A stretch of DNA of 62,064 nucleotides from a virus (lineage: Duplodnaviria; Caudoviricetes), in the IMG/VR virus record IMGVR_UViG_3300015360_000003, positions 1 through 62,064 of that record. One strand, given 5' to 3'. Positions 652-55,387 of the stretch are shown in pieces. The notes below the pieces were generated by a model. It ran no database searches. It worked only from the letters and a program-made list of their open reading frames with translations, and was not told the origin of the DNA. Numbering within the stretch: position 1 is the first letter of the stretch; each line of letters begins with the position of its first letter. Both the position numbers and the translations under genes were made by a program.

Positions 652-758
652 GTTTTTCACCTAGTTTATAAAACCGCCCATCGTAATTAATGGGCGAATA
701 GTAAGACGACTATTCAATCGGCAACGATTCGATTTTACATAAGCGTAAATGTCTTATC

Positions 759-977
759 TTAGCCCTCTAATATTTTAAAATCGATAAAGGAGGATTCACC
801 TGATAGGATCTCCTGCCAATGATCCGCCCAACGCAGGGTATATTCCCCATTCGGGTGATGTATAAGCTGGCTGTACGAATCCCCTTTGATCTCGGCTAAT
901 GTTTTACCCTCATAAGAGCCGGGTATACTACTTCGACAGAGGCCGCGAACGACACATGATGGTTTGTATAAAGGCAT
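759..977 (-). CDS. Hypothetical protein
   Basis: ORF tightly packed in the minus-strand early operon. Confidence 0.6.
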   Translation of the reverse strand: MPLYKPSCVVRGLCRSSIPGSYEGKTLAEIKGDSYSQLIHHPNGEYTLRWADHWQEILSGESSFIDFKILEG

Positions 978-979
978 AT

Positions 980-1177
980 TTACCTGTTGTGCATGATAGG
1001 CGTTATTTTATGTGTGAGGGGGTCGTATTTACAAAGCCGTTTCTTCCAGCCCGGAGGTATGACGATCTCTTTAAAAAGTCGTATGACGTTCTCAAGTGTA
1101 TCGTTGTAAAGTTTTTCGTGGCGGGGCCGATAGCTTTCTTTTTTACCCGTGGCGAGCTGGATGATGTATGTTTCCAT
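980..1177 (-). CDS. Hypothetical protein
   Basis: ORF abutting neighbours on both sides. Confidence 0.6.
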   Translation of the reverse strand: METYIIQLATGKKESYRPRHEKLYNDTLENVIRLFKEIVIPPGWKKRLCKYDPLTHKITPIMHNR

Positions 1178-1471
1178 TTAGCCCACCATTTTCCATACGA
1201 CGCGCATAGCCATGGCTGGCCCTTTGCTATCCGCGATAGCCAAAAGCTTTACGCGGCCTTCTTCTGGTAGTAGGTCAAATATTTTTACAAATGCGGAAGC
1301 ACTAAAAGAGTCGATCATATCGCCGTGCCAACGTGCACACTGTTGTTCATTTAGTATTTTGCGGCAAACATCAATCATGCTCTTAGAGTTCTTACGTCGG
1401 GGAGCGGATCGAATCGTCGATAACACGTCGGCTAGTTCGGCGCGGTCGTTTGTATCTTCAGGTGTTTTCAT
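1178..1471 (-). CDS. Hypothetical phage protein (IDSFSASA motif)
   Basis: 97 aa; GGAAACAAAATG leader; follows hairpin 1. Confidence 0.8.
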   Translation of the reverse strand: MKTPEDTNDRAELADVLSTIRSAPRRKNSKSMIDVCRKILNEQQCARWHGDMIDSFSASAFVKIFDLLPEEGRVKLLAIADSKGPAMAMRVVWKMVG

Positions 1472-1508
1472 TTTGTTTCCAGTGTTTTCATTTTGTTTCC
1501 AGTGTTTT

Positions 1509-1558
1509 AAACGTTCAATCGATTCGCTATCTGCAAATAGCGAATCCGTTGAAAGTTT
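1509..1558 (-). repeat. Intergenic hairpin element, copy 1
   Basis: Top strand AAACGTTCAATCGATTCGCTAT-CTGCAA-ATAGCGAATCCGTTGAAAGTTT. Confidence 0.95.
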
Positions 1559-1592
1559 TACTCAGCTACTGTAGTTTTATACTCCTCAAAAG

Positions 1593-1967
1593 CTACGCGG
1601 TTATCAAACACTCGTTGTTTTCGCAGTCATTGCAGTTATTGCAGTCATTGCAGCGGGCGCAGTCATTGCAGTTATTGCAGTCATTGCAGCGGGCGCAGTC
1701 ATTGCAGTTATTGCAGTGGGTGCATTTGGTGCAGCGGGCGCAGTCATCGCAGTCATTGCAGGTATTGCAGTTATTGCAGTGGGTGCATTTGGTGCAGCGG
1801 GTGCAGTCATTGCAGTCAGCGCAATTGGTGCAGCCGAAGCACTCAACACAATCGTCACAGTGGTAGCAATTGTATAGCGTCGCAAGAGAAGCTCTCGCAA
1901 GCACTTCACTTCCCCATTTTTCAATCGAGGCTCGGTTTTTGTTTTTGTCAGTGATCCAGGTTTTCAT
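1593..1967 (-). CDS. Cys-rich CxxC repeat protein (family D)
   Basis: KTWITD..NRASIEKWGSE N-terminus, then Cys every third residue; paralogue of 2339-2833 and 53135-53737. Confidence 0.85.
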   Translation of the reverse strand: MKTWITDKNKNRASIEKWGSEVLARASLATLYNCYHCDDCVECFGCTNCADCNDCTRCTKCTHCNNCNTCNDCDDCARCTKCTHCNNCNDCARCNDCNNCNDCARCNDCNNCNDCENNECLITA

Positions 1968-2218
1968 TTTGTTTCCATTGTTTTAAACATTAAAAAATCG
2001 GGGGGGTAGATAGTCAGTATAAAATCTAAACAGGTGGTAAATTCGGACACGGATAGATCCATCTCGGTGCGGAAATGCATTTTGTATCCATCGATTTTCA
2101 TTCGCTGGATACAGGTCCCGAACCCTTTAATATGCAGGTGGTTTTTTGAGTACGAGTAGCCGCCTTTACTGCTACGGCGTAGTCGGTTGATCTCCGCGAT
2201 TATCTTGTCAGTGCCCAT
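1964..2218 (-). CDS. Hypothetical protein (family C)
   Basis: MGTDKIIAEINRLRRSSK...; paralogue of 6692-6922; C-terminus extended by an extra base in a G7 run. Confidence 0.8.
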   Translation of the reverse strand: MGTDKIIAEINRLRRSSKGGYSYSKNHLHIKGFGTCIQRMKIDGYKMHFRTEMDLSVSEFTTCLDFILTIYPPDFLMFKTMETK

Positions 2219-2236
2219 AATTGTTTCCAGTGGTTT

Positions 2237-2286
2237 AAACATTCAATCGATTCGCTATCTGCAAATAGCGAATCCGTTGAAAGTTT
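2237..2286 (-). repeat. Intergenic hairpin element, copy 2
   Basis: One substitution relative to copy 1. Confidence 0.95.
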
Positions 2287-2338
2287 TACTCGGTTACTGT
2301 AGTTTTATACTCCTCAAAAGCTACGCGGTTATCCACCA

Positions 2339-2833
2339 CTAGCTGTTTTCGCAGTCAACACAGTCATTGCAGTTATTGCAGTGGGTGCATTTGGTGCAGC
2401 GGGTGCAGTCATCGCAATCATTGCAGTGGGTACAATCATCACAATCATTGCAGTTATTACAATGGGGGCATTTGGCGCAGTCATTGCAGTTATTGCAATA
2501 AAGGCATTTGGTGCATCGGGTGCATTTGGCGCAGTCATTGCAGTTATTGCAATAAAGGCATTTGGTGCATCGGGTGCATTTGGCGCAGTCATTGCAGTTA
2601 TTGCAATAAAGGCATTTGGTGTATCGGGTGCATTTGGCGCAGCGGGCGCAGTCATCGCAGCGGGCGCAGTCATCGCAATTGGTGCAGCCGAAGCAATCAA
2701 CGCAATCGTCGCAATCGGCGCAATTTCGCAGCGTCACGAGTGAAGCTCTCGCAAGTGCCTCACTTCCCCATTTTTCAATCGAGGCGCGGTTTCTGTTTTC
2801 GTCGGTGATCCAAGTTTTGGGTTTAGTGTTCAT
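2339..2833 (-). CDS. Cys-rich CxxC repeat protein (family D)
   Basis: Same N-terminus as 1593-1967; 18-aa repeat CAKCTRCTKCLYCNNCND x3. Confidence 0.85.
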   Translation of the reverse strand: MNTKPKTWITDENRNRASIEKWGSEALARASLVTLRNCADCDDCVDCFGCTNCDDCARCDDCARCAKCTRYTKCLYCNNCNDCAKCTRCTKCLYCNNCNDCAKCTRCTKCLYCNNCNDCAKCPHCNNCNDCDDCTHCNDCDDCTRCTKCTHCNNCNDCVDCENS

Positions 2834-3021
2834 TCTGTTTCCTTTAAAAGTTTAACTAATACGGCTACGGTTTTTGTGGCGATGCGTCCAGCTTCCATTC
2901 CATCTCGGTATAATTCCGAACCTTGCGGATTTTGGGCATCGATTGTTTCGACGATAAAGTCGTATAAAGTTTCTGCGAATCCGGGCACGGTCACGAAGCG
3001 GTTTACATAGTCAGGGTTCAT
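2830..3021 (-). CDS. Hypothetical protein
   Basis: Likely start MNPDYV after a GAGAAATCAAATG leader; ATGA overlap with the next gene. Confidence 0.7.
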   Translation of the reverse strand: MNPDYVNRFVTVPGFAETLYDFIVETIDAQNPQGSELYRDGMEAGRIATKTVAVLVKLLKETE

Positions 3022-3031
3022 TTGATTTCTC

Positions 3032-3417
3032 GTTTGCGTAAAACTTGGCCGGTGGAAGTCCCGGCTTGGAAGTGGGAGGTTAAAGCCCGAAATCTTCCGG
3101 CTCTTCGCCACGATTCGGCGCGTAGTGATAAATCGCCTCATATTCAGCTTCGGACTCACAGATTATTTGCGCGCCGCGATCGGTGAGTAACACAGTAAAG
3201 CGCTCAGGCGGCAACGGGACTCCGTTCGCGTGTCGCGTAACTCTTATTAATTTGAGAGTTTCCAGCTCCCGAAGATTGGCCGCGCTGTACACGTCCGTAA
3301 AATGCTGGCCATGTTCGTTGCGGTCAATGATCTCGGAAAGGATTTCATGTTTCTGTTTAGTGTTCATTTTGTTTTCCTTGTTTGCGTAAAACTTGGCCGG
3401 TGGAAGTCCCGGCTTGG
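3032..3417. repeat. 38-bp perfect direct repeat (3032-3069 and 3380-3417) flanking one gene
   Basis: GTTTGCGTAAAACTTGGCCGGTGGAAGTCCCGGCTTGG twice; internal GCCGG/CCGGC stem. Confidence 0.95.
3080..3367 (-). CDS. Winged-helix-like small protein (family B)
   Basis: MNTKQK..RNEHGQHFTDVY..L.ELE..LI..LTDRG; paralogue of 6993-7259 and 8271-8489. Confidence 0.75.
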   Translation of the reverse strand: MNTKQKHEILSEIIDRNEHGQHFTDVYSAANLRELETLKLIRVTRHANGVPLPPERFTVLLTDRGAQIICESEAEYEAIYHYAPNRGEEPEDFGL

Positions 3418-3420
3418 GGG

Positions 3421-3687
3421 CTAGTCTTTGAACCATTCGTCGCCGATTTTTTCAAAGCAACCGTGGTCCGCTAGGTAGTAGTTGAACTCTTTATGATTGG
3501 AATCGAGCACAACAAACGCGCCAGGTACACAATGGTTGTCCTTTGCTAGTAGCTCCTTCTCGATCTCCTCTGTCGTGTAGCGCTCGATCTCGCAGTCTGC
3601 GATAGCTGCGGCTCTCGTTTCGCCCGCGCCGAACAGCCAATATCCGTATTGTACGACGGCGAATTTAATAGGGGTTTTAGTGTGCAT
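3421..3687 (-). CDS. Hypothetical protein (family A)
   Basis: KFAVVQYG..GAGETRA..EKIGDEWF; one of four paralogues. Confidence 0.85.
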   Translation of the reverse strand: MHTKTPIKFAVVQYGYWLFGAGETRAAAIADCEIERYTTEEIEKELLAKDNHCVPGAFVVLDSNHKEFNYYLADHGCFEKIGDEWFKD

Positions 3688-3704
3688 TTTGTTTCCATTG
3701 TTTT

Positions 3705-3724
3705 AAACATTCAATCGATTCGCT
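3705..3724 (-). repeat. Truncated half copy of the hairpin element
   Basis: AAACATTCAATCGATTCGCT with no partner arm. Confidence 0.85.
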
Positions 3725-3772
3725 TTATCGAGCCACCAGTTTTCATAATTCTTTTCCGGGCATAAAAATTTA

Positions 3773-4390
3773 TCAGGCTTCGGGACGTGGTGCGCGCATT
3801 GCCATGACGACGGCTTTGCAGTGTCCTTCGTCGTGTTCGATCAAAACTTGGCCGCCTTGATACCAGGAAATCGTAAAAATTCCTTCTCCTTCTTTATTTG
3901 CCGTAGCGTCGGTCAGGTACTCAAGATCTATGCAAGAAGATTGGGAATCGATAATAGACTGAATATCGCCTTTTACGTTGGCTATTCTGAGCGCGAATTT
4001 CAAATCAAATTGTTTCCCGTGTGACGCCCCGAACGAAATCTCTACGGCACCAAATTTACAAATAGTTACTCCCGGGCAGTAATTGTTTTTTAAAAACTTG
4101 GATGTGCCGATCAAAAATTTACGGTCATCTGCGGCTAAGAGCAGCGAGAAAGACGCAAGCAACCTATCCGAATTGTTCGGTAACACGTCACGCCACGACG
4201 GGAAATCGACATCCTCACCGGACAGTGAGAAACCCTTTTCGATTTTTTCACTCGAAACGATGTGGATTCGTTTCCCGTCGGTCGCCACTGTGTAGTCCGT
4301 GTCACGGTACGGCGCACGTAGATTTGGGTAGGCACGATCTTTCGACGTTGCCAGATTTAACCAGTCGGTCGGTGATGATATTTTCGTCAT
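3773..4390 (-). CDS. Sliding-clamp (DNA Pol III beta)-like protein, partial
   Basis: ATSKD..L....VATDGKR motif, FPSWRDVLP, C-terminal AVVMAMR resembling clamp VVMPMR; only 205 aa. Confidence 0.55.
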   Translation of the reverse strand: MTKISSPTDWLNLATSKDRAYPNLRAPYRDTDYTVATDGKRIHIVSSEKIEKGFSLSGEDVDFPSWRDVLPNNSDRLLASFSLLLAADDRKFLIGTSKFLKNNYCPGVTICKFGAVEISFGASHGKQFDLKFALRIANVKGDIQSIIDSQSSCIDLEYLTDATANKEGEGIFTISWYQGGQVLIEHDEGHCKAVVMAMRAPRPEA

Positions 4391-4406
4391 ATGTTTCCAT
4401 TGTTTT

Positions 4407-4458
4407 AAACGTTCAATCGATTCGCTAGTCTCGCGACTAGCGAATCCGGTGAAGGCTT
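4407..4458 (-). repeat. Intergenic hairpin element, copy 3
   Basis: GATTCGCTAGTC-TCGC-GACTAGCGAATC; GCGA (GNRA) loop on the coding strand. Confidence 0.95.
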
Positions 4459-4460
4459 AA

Positions 4461-5075
4461 TTAAGATTGGGTTTGAGTATGGATTGCCCGAAGCATTTTC
4501 AATACTTGAGGATCTTCAATTGCGTTCCAAAGAAAGTCATCTATATGATTGCTACATACCAAAGCTTCAGCTATGGATTTTTCCCATAGCTCGCCAACAT
4601 CGATGTATGAGTTTATGAATGCTTCGAGTAGCACGGCGATTTGGTTATGGTCCCAAGTCAAGACATTACTTGCCCAATCGGATAAGTCGCTGGAGTAAAA
4701 CGATAAGAAACCGGACCGGGACGTAAAGCATTTTTTAATTTGTCTACGCAGTAGTGCCGGATCTACTAGACTGAACACGCGCAAAACCTCCGCGTCTTCG
4801 ATGGTACAAAATATCTGGTCGGTTTGGAAATTGTACTCGCGTGGACTGATTAGTTTTTCAAACGAGATGGCTATGCTGAAGGTATGTGCGAATTGTTCGG
4901 TGTAGTTTTTTGCGTACTGAGAAAAAACCGCCGGCCAACAAATAGCCGCGAATATTACAGCAGAGTTTGGGCATGAGGTGTCCTCAGTACCTTTAATCAG
5001 GTGATCGTAGGCGGTATCCACGGCGTCGGCATGTTCAGTCTGGTAGAATCCTGCGAATGGTAATGTCGTCTTCAT
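4461..5075 (-). CDS. Hypothetical phage protein (PFAGFY/SPREYNF/SRSGFLSFY motifs)
   Basis: ~204-aa ORF between two hairpins; GGAAAAC leader. Confidence 0.85.
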   Translation of the reverse strand: MKTTLPFAGFYQTEHADAVDTAYDHLIKGTEDTSCPNSAVIFAAICWPAVFSQYAKNYTEQFAHTFSIAISFEKLISPREYNFQTDQIFCTIEDAEVLRVFSLVDPALLRRQIKKCFTSRSGFLSFYSSDLSDWASNVLTWDHNQIAVLLEAFINSYIDVGELWEKSIAEALVCSNHIDDFLWNAIEDPQVLKMLRAIHTQTQS

Positions 5076-5093
5076 AATGTTTTCCGTTTGTTT

Positions 5094-5143
5094 AAACAAT
5101 CAATTGATCCGCTATCTGCGACTAGCGAATCTGTTGAGGGTTT
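5094..5143 (-). repeat. Intergenic hairpin element, copy 4 (degenerate)
   Basis: AAACAATCAATTGATCCGCTA...TAGCGAATCTGTTGAGGGTTT. Confidence 0.8.
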
Positions 5144-5154
5144 ATAAACTCTTC

Positions 5155-5553
5155 TTATAGCCACCGGGATGTAAGAGCATAACCACCGTCGGGATCTCGC
5201 ACGTCCGCACCTAGTCCGTTTCTGCCATAGTCTTTACCGGCCTCTGCGGGAATATATCCCTGCGGGAATAGCGCACGCCCTAATGCGTAGATAGTATGAA
5301 ACCCCATGTCCATGCCACAGCCATTTATGCTTAGCGCAGGAGTGCCGCGCAGCGACACAAGACGCAGGCCAAGTACTGCTGCCATCGGGCAGGTAATTCC
5401 GGTTATTTCCCCGTCACGGAGAATAAAAAAACTGATTTTTCGATTCATGCCCGAACGACTCACGGATCGCAGAACGCAGTACACGGTATCGCCGGGCTTC
5501 AACACTGCGCATAGGTGATTACGGTCATCTTCGCGATCTTTTTGCTTTGTCAT
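5155..5553 (-). CDS. Hypothetical phage protein (SVSRSGM/GCGMDMGF motifs)
   Basis: ORF between hairpins; AGGAAAAC leader. Confidence 0.85.
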   Translation of the reverse strand: MTKQKDREDDRNHLCAVLKPGDTVYCVLRSVSRSGMNRKISFFILRDGEITGITCPMAAVLGLRLVSLRGTPALSINGCGMDMGFHTIYALGRALFPQGYIPAEAGKDYGRNGLGADVRDPDGGYALTSRWL

Positions 5554-5571
5554 AATTGTTTTCCTTGTTTT

Positions 5572-5624
5572 AAACATTCAATCGATTCGCTAGTCGCCGT
5601 GCCTAGCGAATCTGTTGAAAGTTT
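5572..5624 (-). repeat. Intergenic hairpin element, copy 5
   Basis: GATTCGCTAG...CTAGCGAATC; overlaps the TAA of 5623-5916. Confidence 0.95.
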
Positions 5625-5916
5625 AACAACCTAATTCCCCAATTTCGCGGTAGCAGTGAGTGCATTGAGCAGCTGACTCTTCCCCCACTTCTACGCCTAC
5701 CGCTTCATAAGCTTGCCCAATAATTTGCCATTCGTTCGCTTCTCGTAAAAGTGTAGCTTTGAGTACTAGTCGGATGTTGTCCTTAATACACGTAGCGCAT
5801 AGCAGGTCGCCGCAAACTGTGACTCCTAACCGATCATAGCAGCCGGGGAAAGTGCAAGGATGGCGGGTAATGCTTTTAACTATTTTGTTACCCGCAAAGT
5901 TTAGTGCTTTTTTCAT
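5623..5916 (-). CDS. Hypothetical protein with two CxxC pairs
   Basis: FPGCY..LCATC..CTHC; GGGAAAC leader. Confidence 0.8.
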   Translation of the reverse strand: MKKALNFAGNKIVKSITRHPCTFPGCYDRLGVTVCGDLLCATCIKDNIRLVLKATLLREANEWQIIGQAYEAVGVEVGEESAAQCTHCYREIGELGC

Positions 5917-5952
5917 AAGTGTTTCCCTTGTTTTAAAGTGTTAACGGCTTCG

Positions 5953-6315
5953 CTAGTCGGCTAAATAGTCAGCTGACAAGCCGTATGTTTTCACGCCGTC
6001 CACATGTACATTATCGAGATCTCCGGCTCCTGGCATACACGGAGAGCAAAACGCGCAATTGATAATGTGAGGCGATTTAAACACGAATAAAAAGTAAGAA
6101 TCGGTCGCGTAGTGACAAATCAAACCGTTTTTGTTGTACGAGAATCCCAATGGTTCGGCGAAGTCGTCGTCATCGGATAAACCTTCAGGATATTCCGCAT
6201 CGAAGTTTTGCAGCCAATCAGGATCGCAGGAGTTCAGCGAGATCACACCGTAGCGAATTCCCGTTTCTACGTCGATGTTAGCTTTGCCGTGTCCGTAGTC
6301 TATTCCGATGTACAT
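5953..6315 (-). CDS. Hypothetical phage protein (ETGIRYGVIS/CSPCMPGAGDL motifs)
   Basis: 120 aa, acidic; AGGAAAC leader after hairpin 6. Confidence 0.85.
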   Translation of the reverse strand: MYIGIDYGHGKANIDVETGIRYGVISLNSCDPDWLQNFDAEYPEGLSDDDDFAEPLGFSYNKNGLICHYATDSYFLFVFKSPHIINCAFCSPCMPGAGDLDNVHVDGVKTYGLSADYLAD

Positions 6316-6331
6316 GGGTTTCCTTTTTTTT

Positions 6332-6383
6332 AAACATTCAATCGATTCGCTAGTCGCGTGCCTAGCGAATCTGTTGAACGTTT
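6332..6383 (-). repeat. Intergenic hairpin element, copy 6
   Basis: Conserved arms; overlaps the TAA of 6382-6669. Confidence 0.95.
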
Positions 6384-6669
6384 AGGCCTCGAACCAAGCA
6401 CCACCGAATTTTTCGTAGCCTCCTTGATTCTGTAGGTAGTCGTCGAAGTCTCTGTGGTCGGATTCGAGTACTACGAATTTTCCGTCGGTCCCGAAATCGT
6501 GGTGATCGAGCAGCTCGCTCTCGATCTCCGCCGGAGTGAGAAGATCGCCGGAGCCGTCGCCGTTTTCAATTTGAGCGTTAGCGAGTGCTAACGCTCGCGT
6601 CTCGCCAGCACCGAACACGCAAGAGCCGAGTTCTATCAACGCGAATTTGAGCGGGTTCTTGTTTTTCAT
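6382..6669 (-). CDS. Hypothetical protein (family A)
   Basis: KFALIELG..GAGETRA..ESDHRDFDDYL..GGYEKFG..WF. Confidence 0.85.
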   Translation of the reverse strand: MKNKNPLKFALIELGSCVFGAGETRALALANAQIENGDGSGDLLTPAEIESELLDHHDFGTDGKFVVLESDHRDFDDYLQNQGGYEKFGGAWFEA

Positions 6670-6691
6670 TTTGTTTTCCTTTTGTTAAAAA

Positions 6692-6922
6692 TTAAAAAAT
6701 CGGTGGGTAGGTAGTCAGTATGGACGTTAAACGTGCGTTAAATTCGGACACGGATAGATCCATCATGGTGTCGAACTGTGTCTCGTATCCGTCGATCTTC
6801 ATACGCTGAATCCAAGTGCCGAATCCTTTAAGGTGTATATGGTTGTTCGAGTACCAATACCATCGGTTTTTACTGCTGCGTCGTAGCTGATTGATCTCCG
6901 CGATTATTTTGTCAGTGTTCAT
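6692..6922 (-). CDS. Hypothetical protein (family C)
   Basis: Paralogue of 1964-2218. Confidence 0.85.
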   Translation of the reverse strand: MNTDKIIAEINQLRRSSKNRWYWYSNNHIHLKGFGTWIQRMKIDGYETQFDTMMDLSVSEFNARLTSILTTYPPIF

Positions 6923-6944
6923 AATTGTTTCCTTGTGTGTGCGT

Positions 6945-6992
6945 AACCATTCAATCGATCACCTAGCCGCGACTAGGTGATCTGTTAAACGC
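6945..6992 (-). repeat. Intergenic hairpin element, copy 7
   Basis: TTCAATC-GATCACCTAG-CCGCGA-CTAGGTGATC-TGTT: different upper-stem sequence, pairing kept. Confidence 0.9.
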
Positions 6993-7259
6993 TCAGGCTT
7001 CGATCTCCTCCTCGAATTCCATCGGACTGGCCCAATCATCGGCGTACGCATCTTCGTCGTCGTCGGTGACATCCACAGTCCAATAATCCGGTCCGTATGG
7101 GATGCCAGTTTCGAGATGCACCGGACGATCAATCTCAATTGACCCCTCCGCTTCTAGCTCGATTAAATCAGCGTGATTGTAGAGGTCCGTAAAATGCTGG
7201 CCGCGCTCGTTGCGTGTCGTAATCTTCGAGATGATTTTGTGTTTCTGTTCATTGTTCAT
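6993..7259 (-). CDS. Winged-helix-like small protein with acidic tail (family B)
   Basis: RNERGQHFTDLY..L.ELEAEG.I; D/E-rich C-terminus. Confidence 0.8.
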   Translation of the reverse strand: MNNEQKHKIISKITTRNERGQHFTDLYNHADLIELEAEGSIEIDRPVHLETGIPYGPDYWTVDVTDDDEDAYADDWASPMEFEEEIEA

Positions 7260-7283
7260 TTTGTTGTCCTTTTAAAGTTAAAG

Positions 7284-7565
7284 CTACGCCTCGAACCAGT
7301 CATTACCGATTTTGTTATAATAGCCGTGATCAGCTAAATATCCGTCAAAATCTTCATGGTCGGATTCGAGCACAAAGAACGTAGCGTCTACACCGTAGCT
7401 ATACTCTTCGAGCAGCTCGCTCTCGATCTCAGCAGGAGTATAGCGCTTGCCGTTAATGCGCTCGATCTCGCAGTCCGCGACGGCTTCGGCTCTCGTTTCG
7501 CCAGTGCCGTGTACACAATAACCGTATTGGATAACGGCGAATTTGATGGGGGTTTTAGTGTGCAT
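7284..7565 (-). CDS. Hypothetical protein (family A)
   Basis: MHTKTPIKFAV N-terminus identical to 3421-3687. Confidence 0.85.
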   Translation of the reverse strand: MHTKTPIKFAVIQYGYCVHGTGETRAEAVADCEIERINGKRYTPAEIESELLEEYSYGVDATFFVLESDHEDFDGYLADHGYYNKIGNDWFEA

Positions 7566-7582
7566 TTTGGTTTCCTTTTTTT

Positions 7583-7632
7583 AAACGTTCAATCGATCAG
7601 CCAGGCGAACCTGGCCGATCCGTTGAAAGTTT
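7583..7632 (-). repeat. Intergenic hairpin element, copy 8
   Basis: GATCAGCCAGG-CGAA-CCTGGCCGATC; UUCG loop on the coding strand. Confidence 0.95.
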
Positions 7633-7744
7633 AGTCTCGGTCAAGCAGCAGGTTTAAAAAATTCTGTACGACAAAGAAAGCGAGCAGGAGGATTCCAGCG
7701 AGCAAGGATGCGAGAATGAAGTGACCGCAGATTAAGCCGAGCAT
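7631..7744 (-). CDS. 37-aa membrane peptide (below ORF-track cutoff)
   Basis: MLGLICGHFILASLLAGILLLAFFVVQNFLNLLLDRD; GGAAAAC leader; TAA overlaps hairpin 8. Confidence 0.75.
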   Translation of the reverse strand: MLGLICGHFILASLLAGILLLAFFVVQNFLNLLLDRD

Positions 7745-7767
7745 TGTGTTTTCCGGTTTTTAAACGA

Positions 7768-7887
7768 TTATCGCGTAGCGAGATATCGGATGGCTCGATC
7801 TAGTCGCGCCAGCAGATCGGCGTCGTCTAAATCGTAGCGTACGATAGTGTTGCGAGCCGTTTTCAGTGTGTGCAAGAGTGTGCGCAT
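7768..7887 (-). CDS. 39-aa peptide (below ORF-track cutoff)
   Basis: MRTLLHTLKTARNTIVRYDLDDADLLARLDRAIRYLATR; AGGAAC leader right after hairpin 9. Confidence 0.7.
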   Translation of the reverse strand: MRTLLHTLKTARNTIVRYDLDDADLLARLDRAIRYLATR

Positions 7888-7905
7888 AGCAGTTCCTTTT
7901 TTTGT

Positions 7906-7955
7906 AAACGTTCAATCGATCGGCCTGGCGAACCTGGCCGATCCGTTGAAAGTTT
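7906..7955 (-). repeat. Intergenic hairpin element, copy 9
   Basis: One mismatch to copy 10; overlaps the TAA of 7954-8202. Confidence 0.95.
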
Positions 7956-8202
7956 AAGCTTTGAACCAATCGTTGCCGATTTTTTCGTAGCCTCCTTGAT
8001 TTTTGAGGTATCCGTCAAAGTCGGCGTGATCGGATTCGAGCATCTTGAATTTGGCCGTGCCGTTTTCGTGGTGCGAGATCATCTCGTCAAGCCGTAGGAT
8101 CGTAGCGTCGATAGCAGCGTCGCGTGTTTCGCCAGCGCCAAAAACACAAACGCCGAGTTGGACGACTGCGAATTTGATAGGGTTTTGGTTGTTCGATTTC
8201 AT
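7954..8202 (-). CDS. Hypothetical protein (family A)
   Basis: KFAVVQLG..GAGETR..ESDHADFDGYL..GGYEKIGNDWF. Confidence 0.85.
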   Translation of the reverse strand: MKSNNQNPIKFAVVQLGVCVFGAGETRDAAIDATILRLDEMISHHENGTAKFKMLESDHADFDGYLKNQGGYEKIGNDWFKA

Positions 8203-8222
8203 TTTGATTTCCGGTTTAAATT

Positions 8223-8272
8223 AAACGTTCAATCGATCGGCCAGGCGAACCTGGCCGATCCGTTGAAAGTTT
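8223..8272 (-). repeat. Intergenic hairpin element, copy 10
   Basis: GATCGGCCAGG-CGAA-CCTGGCCGATC perfect upper stem; overlaps the TAA of 8271-8489. Confidence 0.95.
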
Positions 8273-8489
8273 AATCGTCGCTTTCAACGTTGACAAAAGA
8301 TTCGCCGTCTTCTGTCAAATTGCATTCCCAGTCACCGGGGCGTTCGGCACCAATCCGATGAATTCGCAGCAAACCTTCAGCTTCGAGCGCCAAGAGATCG
8401 GCCAGTTTGTACACGTCCGTAAAGTGCTCTCTGCGCTCGTTGTAATCCGTGATGTGCTCTAAGATCTGGCATTTTTGTTTATCGTTCAT
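8271..8489 (-). CDS. Winged-helix-like small protein (family B)
   Basis: HFTDVY..L.ALEAEGLLRI..LTEDG. Confidence 0.8.
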   Translation of the reverse strand: MNDKQKCQILEHITDYNERREHFTDVYKLADLLALEAEGLLRIHRIGAERPGDWECNLTEDGESFVNVESDD

Positions 8490-8513
8490 TTTGATTTCCT
8501 TTTTTTGGTTAAA

Positions 8514-8642
8514 CTAAAATCTGCGCGCTCGGCGCGCTACGTCGTTAGTCAGATACGCGATACCGACAGATATCGCGAGCACGACGAGTAAAGCGATCGC
8601 TGCGTAGATCTCAATGTCGATGTGGGGAAGTAAATTGAGCAT
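8514..8642 (-). CDS. 42-aa membrane peptide, first gene of the early operon
   Basis: MLNLLPHIDIEIYAAIALLVVLAISVGIAYLTNDVARRARRF; AGGAAC leader. Confidence 0.7.
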   Translation of the reverse strand: MLNLLPHIDIEIYAAIALLVVLAISVGIAYLTNDVARRARRF

Positions 8643-8670
8643 TTTGAGTTCCTTTTCTAGACCGCAATTC

Positions 8671-8731
8671 AGCATAACCTGATAGATGCGCGTCAGTCAA
8701 GCAAAAGGTGTATTTAATTTATTTTTTTTAA
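8671..8731 (-). promoter_or_regulatory. Sigma70-like early promoter with AT-rich UP element
   Basis: TTGACT (8700-8695), 18-nt spacer, TATGCT (8676-8671); A/T tract 8711-8731. Confidence 0.7.
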
Positions 8732-8834
8732 CTTGATATCGGCACAAAACGTATTCACGCGTAAAATCGAGTAGTTAATACGGCAAATGGTGTAGTCGCC
8801 GCACTGTATATATACAGTGCAATCGCGTCACGGA

Positions 8835-8907
8835 TGATCGCCGCTGCCCAAATTGATCGCCGCTGCCCAAATTGATCGCCGCTGCCCAAATGATCGTCGC
8901 TGCCCAA
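8835..8907. repeat. ~19-bp tandem repeat x4
   Basis: TGATCGCCGCTGCCCAAAT units at 8835, 8854, 8873, 8891. Confidence 0.9.
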
Positions 8908-9160
8908 GTAGATCGTCGTGCGTGTGGGTACGCGCATCGTTCGTTCGAGTGGATGCTTCGGACTCGGACGGATGATCGTGGATCGGACGTTGGGTTAGGG
9001 ACTAGTTTTGAACAACTGGTGAAGTAAGGCTTCGATTCGCAACTGAGTACTCTCTTTTCTGTGGCTAGGGATCGGTCACCGATTCGCCTAGACCCCCCCC
9101 CCTACGCCCAGGATCGATATAGATCGATTTTAAAAAAGTGTGCAGCGGCCGATGAAGAAA

Positions 9161-32315: not shown

Positions 32316-34005
32316 GCGATATGAGTCCTTCCAAGGACGCGAGCCTAATATAGATGTTAACCTGTTTACAAACGCAGCATCGGCAGGCATTAACCAAGGC
32401 AACGCACAAAAGACGAGTCTACAGGCAAAGGTATCGGGCTTTATCGGCGGGGTAAAGGATGGCCTTTCAATTGTCTCAGGCGCACAGACTATCGCGTCTA
32501 ACGCTGAGACAATTAAACAGCAGCGGACACAGAACGAGATCAACAGCGAGCCTGCGGTCGTGCAGGCGCGTAAAGATCAGATAGTAAGCGACGCGGCGAT
32601 AGCCCAGGCAAAGGCCAAAGAGTACGAGGACGGAACAGCCGCGCTAACTCGTAAAGCAGAGGATACGTTTAAACTTGCAAAAGCCGTACAGGGCTACGAG
32701 GACATCACTAATATAACCGCTGTTAACAAAGCTTTAGATGATCCAGCAACCCCGCCTGAAAAGATAAAAGAGATCTTATCACAGTCGTATGGAACATTGT
32801 CACGGGATAATGCTTTTGCACAACAAGCACTGGCGCGTAGCCAAGGACGAGTAGACCCTGTTTTTTTAGATACCTACACTAAAGGAGTAGACGCAGTTGA
32901 AATCGACAAGAAAAGAGGTCAACTTGCCCAAGCTAATGAAAAGTCTATACAGCAGCAGGCCCTTAAGCAGCAGGAACAAATTGCAGAAGCAACTGCGACA
33001 CTGCAGCTATCTCCCAGAGTTAAAGATGTCATGGAAAACGGTCTAAATGGACAAGCATACGATCCTGCAAAATTAGATGTCGTAAGAGCTGGGAATGTAG
33101 ACGTTGATCCTAAAACTAAACTTCCTAAATTTGACGCCGCAGGAAAACCAATTATTTCAGCGTCTACTAATCCCGACGATAAACGGTACTATGCAACGTA
33201 TGATGGAGAGGTAATAGATACGTTCGACGAGGACAATGGAAAAGAAATGTCGAAGAGTCACACTAAAAGCAAGCTTGGTACAGCTGCAATTCTTGGGAGA
33301 ACAAAACTCACTCCAGAAGAAGTGAAGAAACAGGTAAGTGTACTTGAAACAGATAGGGCAGGACTTGCTGCTAATAGTAGCAGTATTGATCGACGAATCG
33401 CAGCCGCGTATCCCACAGACATGTCGAAAACGCCTACGATTTCTCCTTCTGTTTTAGAAGGTAAAAGCCCGGCACAGCAAGAATCGCTGGTTGCTAGGTT
33501 TAATCAACAAATACAAAAGCTGCAGAGTGCCCCTAAAGAATTTAGAGCAATAGTGGCAAGAGTAAACAGTAATCCTTTATTAGCAGGACAGTCGCCTATA
33601 ATTAAAGCTGTAGCCTCTGTAGAGAGTGGAGGTAATCCACTTGCTGTATCTCCTACAAACGTACAGGGTGTAATGCAGGTTACATCTGACACCTTTGATT
33701 ACGTTAAAAGAAAGTACCCTACTGTAATGGGAAAGGCGGACAAGTATTCTCCAGAAGGCTCTCTACTAGCTGGAAAGCTGTACATGATAGATATGCTAAA
33801 CCTTACAGGAGATATGGAACTATCACTTGCTGCGTACAATGCGGGGCCAGCGCCTATTATGGCCGCTAAAAGAGACGCAGGAAGAAATGCTACCTGGGCT
33901 ACTATAAAGCCTTTTGTAGCAAAGTACGTATCAGCGGCTAAGTACAAAGAGGTAGAGAGCTATCCTGAGCGAGTTTTAAAATTCTATAGTTTCTACAATG
34001 GCTGA
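32308..34005 (+). CDS. Internal virion protein with C-terminal lytic transglycosylase domain
   Basis: VESGGNPLAVS, GVMQV, AAYNAGP motifs. Confidence 0.85.
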   Translation: MAERYESFQGREPNIDVNLFTNAASAGINQGNAQKTSLQAKVSGFIGGVKDGLSIVSGAQTIASNAETIKQQRTQNEINSEPAVVQARKDQIVSDAAIAQAKAKEYEDGTAALTRKAEDTFKLAKAVQGYEDITNITAVNKALDDPATPPEKIKEILSQSYGTLSRDNAFAQQALARSQGRVDPVFLDTYTKGVDAVEIDKKRGQLAQANEKSIQQQALKQQEQIAEATATLQLSPRVKDVMENGLNGQAYDPAKLDVVRAGNVDVDPKTKLPKFDAAGKPIISASTNPDDKRYYATYDGEVIDTFDEDNGKEMSKSHTKSKLGTAAILGRTKLTPEEVKKQVSVLETDRAGLAANSSSIDRRIAAAYPTDMSKTPTISPSVLEGKSPAQQESLVARFNQQIQKLQSAPKEFRAIVARVNSNPLLAGQSPIIKAVASVESGGNPLAVSPTNVQGVMQVTSDTFDYVKRKYPTVMGKADKYSPEGSLLAGKLYMIDMLNLTGDMELSLAAYNAGPAPIMAAKRDAGRNATWATIKPFVAKYVSAAKYKEVESYPERVLKFYSFYNG

Positions 34006-37000
34006 TGATCAAGAAGACCTGTATACCGGAGAAGCTAGTCTAGCAGATCAGTATACCGCAAACACTGGGGAAGCTAGTTTAGCAGATCAGTATACCTCGA
34101 ATACCGGAGAAGCTAGTTTAGCAGATCAGTATACCTCGAATACCGGAGAAGCTAGTTTAGCAGATCAGTATACCTCGAATACCGGAGAAGCTTTTGTATC
34201 CTCCGCGCCCGACCCTGTAGATGAGATTAAGGAGTCTGCCGAGTCTTTCATAGGAGAGGCAGAGGCCGTCCTGGCCGTCAGCAATAACGCTGATGACGGT
34301 ATCTTTGATTTAGTAGACGCCTACAAATCTCGTACTTGGGACAATCCAGGGAAAGCTCTCCAGATCGTAGAGACGTACGCAAATAAACTACGTGAAAAAA
34401 ATCCAGGGGAACAGAATTTATTAACCGCAGAGGAAACTTTAAACATTGCTCCTGTAAAAACGGGAGACGTTGACGGTTATATCCAAAGCTGGGAAGCGCA
34501 GAACCTCGCTAAGATAAAAAATAGTAACGACCCCTTAGTTCGCGCATACAACGATACCTTAGCGGGGGCAATTGAGCAGGTAGCAACAGGTGCTATCCAA
34601 GCCAATAATAACGAAGAGGTATCTGTCTTTAGCGATAAGATGGCCCGAATTACGTTGGGCGCTTTGCCAGGATTGGCAAAGCTCACAGGGACGGAGAAGT
34701 ATCTAGAACGCTCTCTTAGAGCGGATAGTAACGACACTCTGGCTTCGGCAGTAAGTTCAGGCGTCGGATCTATACTCAGTCTTCCTTTGGCGGTGTTGAA
34801 TCTTCCTTTAAACGCCGAAGAGTTTGGACGAGAGCAGTACAACAAATCACGCGCTGCAGGAGCAGACGTAGGCACCGCTCTTTTTTCAGGAGGAATAGAA
34901 GGGGTAAACCAAGCCGCAGACGTACTGCTTGATAAAGTATTACTCGGTACCAAAGCACGGAAATCAGCAGGCTTTGTAGCAACAGGATTGAAAAAAGCCT
35001 TGGGGGAGGGAACACAAGAATTCGCCCAGGATAAAGTATCAGACGCCGCCTCTGTAGTAGGGCTAAGTAAGAATGAGTTAGACGCAGTGTTTACGGATAG
35101 CGCTGCGATGTCCTTTGCCGCTGGCGCGATAGTGGGCGGAGGAGCACAGGTTGTAATGCCTAATGCAGCCCGCCCATCTCCATCTACACCGGACACGGGT
35201 TTGTCTGAGATGTTTAGTGGGATCGAACAGGATCAGGATCTAGTGATCCCTTTCCCAGAAACCGCTCCGATGAGGTCTGTCGCTGTCGTCGGGGAGCCTG
35301 CCTATGGAGGAACTAATTTTACACTTGTAGAGGACGCGTCTACAGGAGACGTAGACGTTAAAGAGTCGGCTGCCCCTATAGCGGAATCGGACGCGGACGA
35401 AGTATTTATTCTAGCTCCTGACGGGACTATCACCCGTGTTGTGCAGGGAGAACAAAAGCAGGCTCATACAGGGGCGGTATTTGTGTCTCCTGAAAATGCT
35501 CAAAAGATTGCCGCCCTACAGGCGAGTGAACCAGGTGGAGAGCCTGTCATCATAAAACAAGATGACCTTGGGCGACCGTATGTCGAACATCCAAACGTGG
35601 GCAATGACCTAGAGGTACACGACGATATTGTAGATAATGATCCTGTACTGATCCCCGAAGAAACAGCTGGACATGTTCTTCAGTTTTCAGAGAGACAGAA
35701 CGAGTTAGATAGTGTCGAGCATAGCGCTACTGTTAGTAACGGCACCGCTAATACTGTATCTACAGTAGGCGCTCAAAAAGTTGCCGAGTCGTCTATTGCC
35801 GATAAACTCCGGGCCTCTAACAACCTTAACCCTGTTGTCCGCGATCTTTTAGGATTAAACGACGATTTTGCGACTAATCTTACGTATCTTCCAAACTCAA
35901 ACGTGGGAACCCGTGGGCAAGTAGACGAGACGTTTGCTCAGTTCGATAATAACTACGTTCTTTTTGCCAATGATCTTTTGGCAAAAGATTACGATGATCT
36001 TACTTCAATAGAAGGAGTCGCGGCGGCAATCGCGGGTACCGCCCTGTCTGCAAAAGGAAATAGTGTTAGAGCCACTGATCCTGTCGCGGCGGCGAAGTAT
36101 GATACGCTCGCGGTTAACCTCTGGATCGCCTCTCAAAAAGTAGGAACCCCCGCAGGTCAAGAACTCCAGCAACGTACCCAGATTCCTATGACTGGGGAAA
36201 ATATAATTGTATCGGTTAAGTCCGATGTCTCCGCTATGGCTACAGCGAAAGTAGCCCAACAGACCGGACGCTCAATTCAGAGTATCGAAGGCATTATCGA
36301 GGAGAATACGCAGCTTGATAACCTGTCCACAGGTTTAAACGAAAGAGAAACGATAATCACTGAGACAGCTAGGGTAGCTGAAGAGCGTCACGACGCGCCT
36401 GATAAACAGGTAGCCGACATAGAAAAAGAGATTCAAACTCTCGAAAACGATGCTTCTCCAGAAGTTACTGCCGCTCAAAAAGATCTAAACACGGTCGAAC
36501 AACGTGTTGCCGAAGTCGAGAGATCCGCTGCAGCCCTTGAAAAAGAAGCGGACGACATAGACATAGACACAGCACAAGAGGGAGTAAGCGATAACGTACA
36601 AACCCTGTCTAAAAAAGTCGAAGAACTACAGGCTAAGCCTATAGACGTAGATAGGTCAAAGCTCGATGCCCTAAAGGCTAAAAGAGTAAAATCGGAAGAC
36701 CAGAGCAGTGACCCGGATACCCAGGCAGCCGCCATAGAAAAAGAGATTCAAACTCTCGAAAACGATGCTTCTCCAGAAGTTACTGCCGCTCAAGAAGATC
36801 TGAACACTGTTGAAAACCGTGTTGTCGAAGTCGAGAGATCCGCTGCCGCCCTTGAGAAAGAAGCGGACGACATAGATACAGTGCAAGAGGAAGTAAGCGA
36901 TAACGTAAAAACCCTGTCTAAAAAAGTCGAAGACCTGCAGGCTAAACCTATAGAAGTAGATAGCTCAAAGCTCGATGCACTAAAGGTCAGAAGGACAAGA

Positions 37001-46729: not shown

Positions 46730-47538
46730 TGTATAGTTAGTGAAATTTCGCCAAAGTCTGCGGCATCCCCGCCGACATACTCAGGACTCATTTTTATATA
46801 TGTATACGAAAACTTATAGTCTCCGTACTCAAGGCTAATACCTGCCCGACCTTCTGCTACAAACGGATACTTATCAACCGACCGCGAATCTTTAAAAGTG
46901 TTGCCGTCTAAGAAGATATTTCTGGCTACTCCTCGCCCGTACACTCCTGCGAAAAATCCTATGTTTAGTCCTTCTCTTAATCTAATCCGTGGGTACAGGC
47001 CATCAGGAGCATCCTTGTAAAGTACACCAATTGTAACCTGATCGAACATGTTCCCAACATCAAATCGTACGTCGGTTAGGATATTTCCGGCGACTCTATC
47101 TTGCAGCTGTCTTGAAATATTGATGCCGGGTTCATCTCGAAGCTGGTAGTCCCATCCTTGGGGGAACGATTGTCCCAGGAATCTATGCACGGTGCGCTGC
47201 GTTTGCTCGCTAAAAGAGCTTGGTCCAACAACACCGAATTCATAGCCCCATACACGTCTCGTGTGATCTTCTCCAATGTCGGTCTGGGTGAATCCCGCAA
47301 GAAGCGCTCCTGCGTATGGACGCTCGTTAGATAGTGGTATGTGTAGTCTTTTGTGATTTGGGGTGTAAAAAATTTGTCTGGCATAGTATCGATCACCCGC
47401 CTCACCAGCTTCTGCACCCGTGCTAACTTGTAATCCTTGAGTGAAATTACGGTCGTTATTTTGGGTGGGTTTAAAGATGTCATTCGCCTCCGTTATTGTA
47501 CATCCGCATAGAAATAGACTTAGTAAAGTACGTCTCAT
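46726..47538 (-). CDS. lpxR: Lipid A deacylase LpxR-family outer-membrane protein
   Basis: DRNFTQG, QIFYTP, RPYAG, GVVGPSS.SE.TQ..VH, PQGW.YQL, RNIFLDGNTF.DS; signal peptide. Confidence 0.85.
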   Translation of the reverse strand: MRRTLLSLFLCGCTITEANDIFKPTQNNDRNFTQGLQVSTGAEAGEAGDRYYARQIFYTPNHKRLHIPLSNERPYAGALLAGFTQTDIGEDHTRRVWGYEFGVVGPSSFSEQTQRTVHRFLGQSFPQGWDYQLRDEPGINISRQLQDRVAGNILTDVRFDVGNMFDQVTIGVLYKDAPDGLYPRIRLREGLNIGFFAGVYGRGVARNIFLDGNTFKDSRSVDKYPFVAEGRAGISLEYGDYKFSYTYIKMSPEYVGGDAADFGEISLTIH

Positions 47539-53737: not shown

Positions 53738-53994
53738 TTTTTTCCTTCTTGGGTTTTAAATTCTTCCGCTTGCTTTAGGAGATCGGCCCCGACTGACTTC
53801 ATGTTTTTGTATACCTCCTCTCCGTCCGCCGGGTATCGGTACAAAGACCCTGCATATATTATCGCAAATTTATCGATAGCGAGGGTTACGTAGTAATATG
53901 ATCCTGTATCAGCTCGCATCTTTATATGTCCCAGTTGAGGAAGATTGCCGACTTCCCAAAACCAGACGCGCTCTGAAGTAGTAAAAGTCTTCAT
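53716..53994 (-). CDS. Hypothetical protein
   Basis: 92-aa ORF. Confidence 0.6.
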   Translation of the reverse strand: MKTFTTSERVWFWEVGNLPQLGHIKMRADTGSYYYVTLAIDKFAIIYAGSLYRYPADGEEVYKNMKSVGADLLKQAEEFKTQEGKKWKAKLG

Positions 53995-55317: not shown

Positions 55318-55387
55318 TTTATCCTTTGTTTAAACTGCCCGTTTATTAAAGTTTACCGATGGGCAGTCGGCAAACCGTTTTCGCTAC

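Follow-up and report, generated by a model that had tools for sequence, protein, structure and literature searches.

The early transcript of phage T7 is a precursor of ~7,000 nucleotides (nt), made by the host RNA polymerase; RNase III cleaves it at five sites, and mono- and dicistronic mRNAs result (PMC4858673). In T4-type phages, elements named PeSLs combine a sigma70 promoter with a terminator stem-loop (PMC2839356; PMC4122927); they flank ORFans in a hyperplastic region, recombination at them gives insertions or deletions (indels) or mini-circles, and in RB49 that recombination was mapped to the loop (PMC2839356). The attC sites of integrons carry 2 to 3 extrahelical bases on one arm and a 5- to 6-nt unpaired central spacer per arm between their R and L boxes; the AAC triplet of the R box is conserved and paired to GTT, and it is the bottom strand that is folded and active (PMC5027507). 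Here we set against these systems a repeated hairpin element from the early region of a phage genome, IMG/VR virus record IMGVR_UViG_3300015360_000003; the window that we analyzed is the entire record, 62,064 base pairs (bp). We favor, at slightly better than even confidence, the reading that the ten copies of this hairpin punctuate a polycistronic early mRNA of ~8 kb in the style of T7, as signals for its processing by a host RNase and for its stability. That the processing enzyme is RNase III specifically is a more tentative proposal, which we hold at distinctly less than even confidence.

The early region lies on the minus strand and comprises the following.

8671 to 8700, minus strand: sigma70-like early promoter, TTGACT-18-TATGCT, from a promoter consensus scan; it heads the array.
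759 to 8642, minus strand: 23 co-oriented small genes, g1 to g23, of 37 to 205 amino acids (aa), from open reading frame (ORF) calls.
674 to 697, minus strand: terminator-like hairpin with a U-run after g23 (−13.4 kcal/mol, z −3.1).

The 8700-8671 site is the sole intergenic promoter match on the minus strand, in agreement with an earlier note on this DNA, which had one sigma70-like promoter heading ~23 small co-oriented genes; the hairpin at 697-674 probably ends the early transcription unit. Of the 20 junctions from g1 to g21, 10 carry a hairpin element; seven of the ten measure 65 to 70 nt and the remaining three 79, 120, and 121 nt; among the plain junctions, four measure 22 to 24 nt and two are 4-nt overlaps, while the other junctions without a hairpin comprise two with a different motif and two with half or degenerate copies of the element. 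The hairpins delimit three one-gene blocks, six two-gene blocks, one five-gene block, and a last block of three genes. The earlier description of the array as units of leader, ORF, and hairpin was thus right about the ten hairpins and too regular otherwise, since only half of the junctions carry one and the blocks run from one or two genes up to five.

All ten copies lie where the earlier note had placed them, every one on the minus (coding) strand. A pattern made from the conserved flanks matched exactly at seven copies and nowhere on the plus strand (0.00 expected from 100 shuffles); a looser search with the right flank added the other three copies and a half copy at 3719; and a covariance model of the ten copies (R1) scores them at 66.6 to 82 bits (E 1e-13 to 1e-17). 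Repeat families D2, D3, and D6 recover the same set. In the alignment the layout is stop-AC-TTTCAAC(G/A)GAT-[stem-loop]-ATCGATTGAA(C/T)GTTTAAAA-GGAAAC-ATG, as had been proposed: the hairpin starts at or just past the upstream stop codon and ends 15 to 21 nt before the next ATG. In six copies the stop codon falls inside the outer helix; to the five with TAA already described we add one with TGA in the same columns. Set against the plain junctions, the hairpin is a discrete block of 42 to 50 nt between the stop codon and CGTTTAAAA, and the same comparison revealed no direct target duplication at the hairpin junctions, for which reason we rejected a miniature inverted-repeat transposable element (MITE) as its identity. 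From the promoter end of the array, the copies are as follows, each with its gene junction, model score, and fold energy in kcal/mol.

8217 to 8275, minus strand: e8237, g2/g3, UUCG loop, TAA stop codon in the outer helix; 80.9 bits; −33.1, z −7.4.
7900 to 7958, minus strand: e7920, g3/g4; 78.7 bits; −26.6, z −6.2.
7577 to 7635, minus strand: e7597, g5/g6, one G.U pair in the inner stem; 82 bits; −29.8, z −8.2.
6939 to 6997, minus strand: e6959, g7/g8, the most divergent stem (GATCACCTAG), TGA stop codon in the outer helix; 66.6 bits; −26.1, z −5.0.
6326 to 6386, minus strand: e6346, g9/g10; 78.2 bits; −29.2, z −8.6.
5566 to 5627, minus strand: e5586, g11/g12; 78.3 bits; −25.4, z −7.4.
5088 to 5146, minus strand: e5108, g12/g13, an apparent chimera; 70.7 bits; −18.6, z −5.2.
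4401 to 4461, minus strand: e4421, g13/g14, 12-bp inner stem and GCGA loop; 70.8 bits; −28.4, z −6.4.
2231 to 2289, minus strand: e2251, g18/g19; 79.3 bits; −22.8, z −6.1.
1503 to 1561, minus strand: e1523, g20/g21, followed by a 20-nt tandem leader duplication (family D14); 79.7 bits; −22.4, z −6.0.

The element had been described as ~50 nt long, with a stem-loop between shared sequences. We found that these conserved flanks are themselves base-paired, not single-stranded, and that the element is no short stem but a ~57-nt hairpin of three coaxial helices, 21 to 23 bp in total, with the same minimum free energy architecture in all ten copies. The outer helix is TAAAC/GTTTA, and an invariant 1x1 mismatch divides it from the middle helix, TTCAA/TTGAA; an invariant 2x2 internal loop, C(G/A) opposite GA, divides the middle helix from the inner one. 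The inner helix (9 to 12 bp) opens with an invariant GAT/ATC and is otherwise free in sequence, and it is closed by a terminal loop of 4 to 9 nt, which is UUCG in three copies and GCGA in one. Fold energies range from −18.6 to −33.1 kcal/mol (z −5.0 to −8.6), and 0 or 1 of 200 shuffled sequences was as stable. Thus, the lower helices and both internal loops are conserved and the upper stem and loop are free, which is the pattern expected if the lower part is what is recognized.

Standard pairs fill 95.7% of the 210 cells of paired positions in the ten-copy alignment, and 6 of the 21 pairs have changed on both sides (17 cells); none of 500 shuffles reached this covariation score, and in a control in which the partners were slid, pairing occurred in at most 44% of cells. 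Of the 18 cells that are not Watson-Crick, half (9) read as G.U on the sense strand; A.C, the form in which a G.U on the antisense strand would appear, is absent. The sense fold exceeds the antisense fold in stability in 9 of 10 copies, the largest margin being 8.9 kcal/mol (the antisense fold of e6959 reaches only −17.2), and model R1 scores the minus strand at 66.6 to 82 bits versus 30.3 to 55.8 bits for the plus strand. The strand bias and the G.U pattern point to an element that acts as RNA on the sense strand, a reading based on the 9 G.U versus 0 A.C cells, the stability of the sense fold, and the strand-specific model scores. The spacing of the conserved half-sites, read by eye from the alignment, varies from 28 to 31 nt with the length of the upper stem; constant geometry therefore exists only in the folded form, which argues against a rigid operator in double-stranded DNA and in favor of the fold being what is recognized, and we rejected a dimeric DNA operator on the same grounds.

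In the reading that we favor, host RNA polymerase would transcribe from the lone sigma70-type promoter at 8700-8671 and would produce a transcript of ~8 kb, carrying 23 genes and ending near the terminator-like hairpin at 697-674. Cleavage at each element would be by a host endoribonuclease. If it is of the RNase III type, the cut would fall within the conserved lower helices; if of the RNase E type, within the A/U-rich leader that adjoins the hairpin. The hairpin would stay behind as a 3' cap that shields the upstream cistrons, so that the precursor would be resolved into mono- and dicistronic mRNAs whose stability and translation are set individually. As a secondary effect, the 65- to 80-nt modules of hairpin plus leader would constitute dispersed repeats, and homologous recombination between them may have duplicated, deleted, and reshuffled the small genes. 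The single transcription unit, the cleavage, the enzyme, and the stabilizing effect are what we infer; no RNase III domain was found in the phage genome, and so cleavage by RNase III would need a host enzyme.

Several observations weigh against this reading. Half of the junctions have no hairpin, and the element is therefore not required for the expression of every gene. T7 sites have a larger internal loop, whereas the loops here are small and symmetric. The ten copies are related by descent and gene conversion; because they are not independent, the covariation and the G.U counts rest on what we estimate to be ~5 stem variants and ~8 wobble events, and we regard the covariation as good but not overwhelming. 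Finally, the strand bias would also fit a hairpin in the non-template DNA strand.

The element is neither a promoter nor a canonical terminator. A complete promoter match lies inside none of the 10 copies, and the region as a whole has 7 promoter-like matches versus 12.4 expected by shuffling, which led us to reject a promoter identity. One promoter match (8296-8268) touches an element, with its second hexamer at the start of e8237 and its first hexamer in the upstream gene; by eye, using the right-arm TTGAAC as a −35 hexamer would put the −10 hexamer over the start codon. A consensus test for a hairpin followed by a T-run was passed by one of the ten elements (5131-5106), and with a T-run in only 1 of 10, we rejected a canonical terminator as well: the other nine have no T-run and continue 3' with ATCGATTGAAYGTTTAAAA, the 3' flank of the element being AUCGAUUGAAYGUUUAAAA. 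The elements might still be non-canonical attenuators or terminators that grade transcription along the operon, as would suit stable GC-rich hairpins placed right after stop codons, the single copy that passes the consensus, and the precedent of PeSL stem-loops, which act as terminators (PMC2839356). We consider this very unlikely: nine copies lack the T-run, ten serial terminators behind a single promoter would silence the distal genes, and a conventional terminator-like hairpin already stands at the end of the array (697-674).

We likewise rejected hairpin promoters of the kind used by the N4-type virion RNA polymerase. The stems and loops vary among copies, a near-consensus sigma70 promoter is present here and in both relatives that include this region (below), and no RNA polymerase match was obtained, in a search for the T7-type enzyme whose control matched no genome. 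A virion polymerase that sequence searches do not detect may reside within a 2074-aa protein of this phage. That protein (33998-40222, plus strand) follows an SLT-domain protein and closes the structural module; searches of Pfam, PHROG, and PDB sequences gave no match to it, and it may be an enzyme that is injected from the virion.

The search for relatives returned few. IMG/VR holds four related contigs, the same set whether an 823-aa protein or the terminase was the query; a scan of metagenomes returned just one of the four again, and a scan of genome_contigs returned no relative. The g14 protein found no relatives as a query, the DNA polymerase found one distant contig, and a profile of paralog family A (below) found two GC-rich contigs, which are without the element. 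The early region is included in only two relatives, L129 and L131, whose terminases are 67 to 68% identical to the one here; both are too distant for indel breakpoints to be mapped against the elements. One of them (G001/L129; 64,776 bp; terminase 68% identical) is complete. L129 is syntenic with the window around the region, in the order terminase, small gene, early region, primase, helicase, and its variable region is ~5.3 kb long versus ~10.3 kb here. Only 2 of 25 early genes (g10 and g13) are common to the window and L129, and none is common to L131, so that gene content is far from identical between the window and these relatives. By eye, the early regions of both are headed by promoter-like sequences, TTGACA-17-TAGAAT in L129 and TTGACA-17-TAAGAT in L131.

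L129 has a hairpin family of its own, with two copies genome-wide and a different stem, which flank the g10 homolog. At the equivalent junctions the L129 hairpins fold with energies of −29.5 and −38.5 on the sense strand versus −21.7 and −24.2 on the antisense strand, a stronger strand bias than that of the element here. A further L129 hairpin, TTGA-CA-[stem]-GA-TCAA, has the same CA/GA 2x2 loop as the element here. Compared with L129, two additional genes with hairpins at their borders lie between g10 and g13 here; on sequence this is compatible with gain or loss of a cassette, and it does not discriminate, because whole-gene indels necessarily end in intergenic DNA.

The element itself appears confined to the window. 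The covariance model search suggested earlier does find all ten copies; outside the window, model R1 was run on 7 loci that are related or share genes and on 4 related records in full, with no match. The specific element pattern matched 0 stretches in IMG/VR, a search from which the window's own record was possibly left out, and a loose flank pattern matched at least 118 stretches, nearly all of them single chance matches. No Rfam family reached its gathering score anywhere in the window; the element thus matches no motif described there, and we rejected a mimic of CRISPR repeats on the same result. Two outcomes that would have counted against the proposal of the earlier note, identical gene content in relatives and a match to a described motif, were accordingly not observed.

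Each hairpin is followed by a leader, TTTAAAAC-AAGGAAAC-N3-5-ATG, which is also present at most plain junctions. The pattern TTTAA..GGAA..ATG is matched 14 times versus 0.58 expected, always on the minus strand and always within 1489-8513. Because all 14 are confined to the early region, the leader is specific to early genes and is not the general ribosome-binding site of the genome; this confinement suggests translation or decay control particular to the early class. Leaders without a hairpin, found with the leader pattern, are the following.

8487 to 8513, minus strand: leader at g1/g2.
7742 to 7764, 6667 to 6689, 5914 to 5937, and 1965 to 1987, minus strand: further leaders.

The 20-nt tandem leader duplication behind e1523 (1464-1508) provides two in-phase start contexts for g21; 1-nt indel variants occur at 1480-1485 in contigs of DNA run X1. 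A second intergenic motif, CCAAGCCGGGACTTCCACCGGCCAAGTTTTACGCAAAC, stands at two minus-strand junctions, 3375-3420 and 3020-3066. The 5-bp hairpin of this motif is weak and falls short of significance (z −1.4 and −0.6); its 11-mer CCACCGGCCAA also precedes a gene in L129 (~4300-4325).

The leader and the invariant parts of the hairpin bear on another explanation, in which the hairpin is a site for a specific phage or host RNA-binding protein, distinct from a general RNase, that controls translation or decay of early messages as a group, for example in early shut-off. Beneath a variable upper stem, such a protein would find three invariant parts to read, namely the TTCAA/TTGAA helix, the C(G/A)/GA loop, and the GAT/ATC pairs; the recurrence of the CA/GA loop in the otherwise different L129 hairpin and the adjoining leader, early-gene-only in 14 of 14 matches with 0.58 expected, also suit it, and T4 RegA and RegB are precedents for early-mRNA-specific control. 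No candidate protein was identified, however; the early genes have no informative family matches; the hairpin is missing at 10 of the 20 g1-g21 junctions; and an RNase III-type enzyme would contact the same conserved lower part. We regard this explanation as distinctly unlikely.

Paralogous early genes recur in shuffled order, as the earlier note had it: family A has four members in the array, family B three, and families C and D two each. A third family D copy, which lacks the early leader, lies away from the hairpin array, at 53444-53740 (minus strand) in the replication module. The family D proteins of the array (1593-1967 and 2339-2833, minus strand) are Cys-rich, being mostly tandem C-x2-C-x2-C repeats, with DNA periodicities of 9 to 72 nt; they match phrog_15341, whose function is unknown. 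The family A profile matched five proteins, four of them the window's own, and an AlphaFold model of family A had a mean pLDDT of 48.7; g14 had no match among PDB sequences. Pfam matched 0 of 10 early proteins and PHROGs 4 of 10, three of them to families of unknown function and the fourth weakly to a family labeled "DNA ligase" (E 0.0015). By these searches, the early genes are ORFans.

The elements themselves carry traces of copying. Identity between copies forms a discrete block that runs from 5 to 8 nt before TTCAAC to 15 to 36 nt after ATCGATTGAA, that is, from stop codon to ATG; outside it, the flanking genes are unrelated unless they are paralogs. Adjacent copies have identical stems (8237/7920/7597, 6346/5586, and 2251/1523), and since stem sequence is otherwise free, this argues for recent copying or gene conversion. 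The left arm of e5108 is of the e4421 type (12 of 12 aligned letters) and its right arm of the e2251/e1523 type (13 of 14, versus 9 of 14 for e4421), with a G.A mismatch as expected from a crossover in the loop; e5108 is an apparent chimera of two stem variants. Two partial copies also occur.

3685 to 3745, minus strand: half copy with the right arm and leader only, after a leader and an 11-codon ORF stub (16.2 bits, E 0.76; repeat families D2 and D3); it does not fold (z +1.4).
5917 to 5959, minus strand: probable degenerate right-arm remnant, a weak assignment, consisting of CGACTAGCGAA and the leader and containing the g10 stop codon (repeat family D2; 80% identical to e5586 over 51 nt).

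Together, these features suggest that the hairpin-plus-leader modules appear to behave as recombining repeats; the traces fit PeSL-like shuffling by general recombination, and any dispersed repeat would leave the same. We found no joints, ends, or rearranged forms in the contigs of the single DNA run that covers the region, contigs being prone to drop rare forms; contig breaks of that run fall at the repeats. What had been proposed as a platform for acquiring and duplicating genes is thus likely a by-product of repeat recombination.

It could be that the modules are mainly recombination joints, PeSL-like and selected for homologous exchange of small genes, with any RNA role secondary. The discrete stop-to-ATG identity blocks between unrelated genes, the identical neighboring stems, the chimeric e5108, the two half copies, and the leader duplication would all follow, as would the shuffled paralogs and an early region in which just 2 of 25 genes are shared with the nearest complete relative, between core genes that keep their synteny. 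This phage encodes a PD-(D/E)XK nuclease and a single-stranded DNA (ssDNA)-binding protein, and in RB49 the PeSL crossover was mapped to the loop (PMC2839356). Even so, we think it improbable that exchange is what the element is for: any repeat of 60 to 80 nt recombines, so the traces are no proof of selection; joints have no need for a hairpin, covariation, a sense-strand G.U bias, or invariant loops; the contigs of the one run, which drop rare forms, hold no joint or alternative arrangement; and whole-gene indels end in intergenic DNA regardless.

The two roles might also be combined, in a dual-purpose cassette boundary: an RNA factor would read the internal loop and lower helices, and the same module would be a recombinase-independent DNA crossover site. 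The factor could be a phage early-mRNA nuclease or binding protein, or an unusually used host RNase III; it would set the fate of each early message, and the DNA role would expand and reshuffle the ORFan repertoire. The early region has ten copies and 25 genes here; in the nearest relative there are two copies, and the region is about half as long. We consider a dual function unlikely; if true, it would amount to PeSL-like shuffling built on a processing signal and not on a promoter-terminator.

A dedicated recombinase was the subject of separate searches. The hairpins might be attC-like ssDNA recombination sites, or a selfish palindrome like those of repetitive extragenic palindromic (REP) or MITE type, moved by such an enzyme: they overlap stop codons, the organization is cassette-like, half copies exist, and the outer helix has AAC...GTT in 8 of 10 and 9 of 10 copies, respectively, as in attC R boxes (PMC5027507). 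In the complete 62-kb genome, however, we obtained 0 matches at E ≤ 0.1 to Phage_integrase (PF00589), Resolvase, or Y1_Tnp, while controls for the three domains matched 14 of 14, 13 of 14, and 7 of 14 reference genomes, respectively. The absence of an encoded recombinase claimed earlier is borne out for the tyrosine, serine, and Y1 types; these searches covered the phage genome only, and a host integrase is possible. Moreover, 0 of 10 copies have an extrahelical base, none has a 5- to 6-nt unpaired spacer, the coding (top) strand is favored, direct target duplications are absent, and the element occurs in no other IMG/VR contig by the specific pattern nor in the 4 related records. Mobility of this kind is, in our view, most improbable, and the integron comparison of the earlier note fails on four of five attC features.

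Among 50,697 GenBank phage records, neither a megablast of the 8-kb early region nor a tblastn of the terminase-like protein (623 aa) returned a match, and judged by these comparisons the phage belongs to a lineage without a close cultured relative. A 48-bp tandem repeat (4 to 5 copies) is present at 1-240 and 62017-62064. The "direct terminal repeat" of the record is exactly one unit of it, and the record ends may be an assembly overlap, not true termini. The genome codes for a family A DNA polymerase, a helicase, a primase, and an exonuclease; it also carries genes for an LpxR-like outer-membrane lipid A deacylase (E 4e-51), a phage Dam methylase/methyltransferase, a DUF2800 PD-(D/E)XK nuclease, and an Enc34-type ssDNA-binding protein, which lie as follows by domain matches.

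46726 to 47538, minus strand: LpxR-like deacylase.
48788 to 49270, minus strand: Dam methyltransferase.
54661 to 56590, minus strand: DUF2800 nuclease and Enc34-type ssDNA-binding protein.

The host is likely Gram-negative, because of this gene set, including the LpxR-like outer-membrane protein. GATC or GANTC, and ATCGAT, are present in the invariant base of the inner stem of the hairpin, in a phage that encodes a Dam methyltransferase. Upstream of the early promoter, 8799-8918 contains four direct repeats of 18 to 19 bp, GATCA(A)TTTGGGCAGCGGC, and a 20-bp palindrome, GCACTGTATATATACAGTGC, which look like an operator or an origin; relatives have other repeats at the equivalent place (in L131 at 3790-3880, by eye). 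Between the primase gene and the last minus-strand gene lie a 41-nt perfect palindrome with a 19-bp stem (61174-61214) and a related TGTACA-containing hairpin (60905-60931).

Phages seem to make wide use of repeated hairpins between early genes as a device of gene expression, one that has been poorly cataloged; to our knowledge, only the T7 sites and the T4-type PeSLs have so far been studied experimentally. The family described here is an unusually regular case, with ten copies, clear covariation, an RNA-type strand bias, invariant loops, and an early-only leader in a lineage without a cultured relative. It offers a clean model for defining such signals and any coupling of expression punctuation with gene shuffling. 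Genes and operons of uncultured phages can be predicted better when the element is recognized, and as a compact RNA module it is a candidate insulator between cistrons.

Of the three comparisons offered earlier, that with the RNase III sites of T7 fits best. The T7 early sites, R0.3, R0.5, R1, R1.1, and R1.3, are related irregular hairpins of ~50 to 60 nt between small early genes of one long precursor, and in both phages the lower part of the hairpin is conserved and the upper part freer. We folded five T7 early intergenic regions, which were chosen by site position, the RefSeq table listing no RNase III features; their sense folds were more stable than the antisense folds by 4 to 11 kcal/mol, so that the stronger sense fold is common to both. 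The genes here are co-oriented, with gaps of 22 to 121 nt, one promoter at the head, and a terminator-like site at the end, and would be transcribed together like the T7 early genes. A T7 site is irregular double-stranded RNA of about two helical turns, interrupted by an internal loop, to which the 21 to 23 bp of all 10 copies correspond. The element differs from the folded T7 hairpins in having no visible sequence similarity to them, in its ten copies instead of five, in its symmetric 1x1 and 2x2 loops, and in the stop codon embedded in the outer helix and the fixed early-gene leader downstream; RNase III cleavage is established for T7 and a candidate mechanism here.

REP palindromes and the mosaic elements that contain them (BIMEs), located between enterobacterial cistrons, can block 3' exonucleases and act as recombination hot spots; they are chromosomal, shorter, present in hundreds of copies, and associated with the RAYT transposase. 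The element resembles them as an imperfect palindrome between operon cistrons and differs in that its family is confined to one phage operon, with no Y1 transposase match.

With PeSLs the element shares its position as a conserved intergenic module beside ORFans in a hypervariable early region, the lack of a dedicated recombinase (for PeSLs, PMC2839356 and PMC4122927), and recombination traces between copies, a crossover in the loop included. It differs from them in that 0 of 10 elements have a complete promoter and 1 of 10 is terminator-like; it is instead a hairpin and a translation leader inside what would be a single transcription unit. The earlier likening to PeSLs therefore holds for repeats that flank ORFans in a hypervariable region and does not extend to their promoter and terminator. 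Like attC sites as described in PMC5027507, the elements are imperfect hairpins found at the 3' end of ORFs that lack promoters of their own and are arrayed in one orientation behind a single promoter, with AAC (8 of 10) and GTT (9 of 10) at the stem base, a short motif in an A/T-rich leader to which we give little weight; unlike attC, they come with no integrase, have bulges in 0 of 10 copies and internal loops of 1x1 and 2x2 only, and favor the coding strand. The element is not an attC site and not a new recombination system. It would work most like the early RNase III signals of T7 and resembles PeSLs in its evolution, and by sequence and defining parts it is a member of neither; on the comparisons made here, it is best described as a new sequence family of a familiar design for punctuating early genes.

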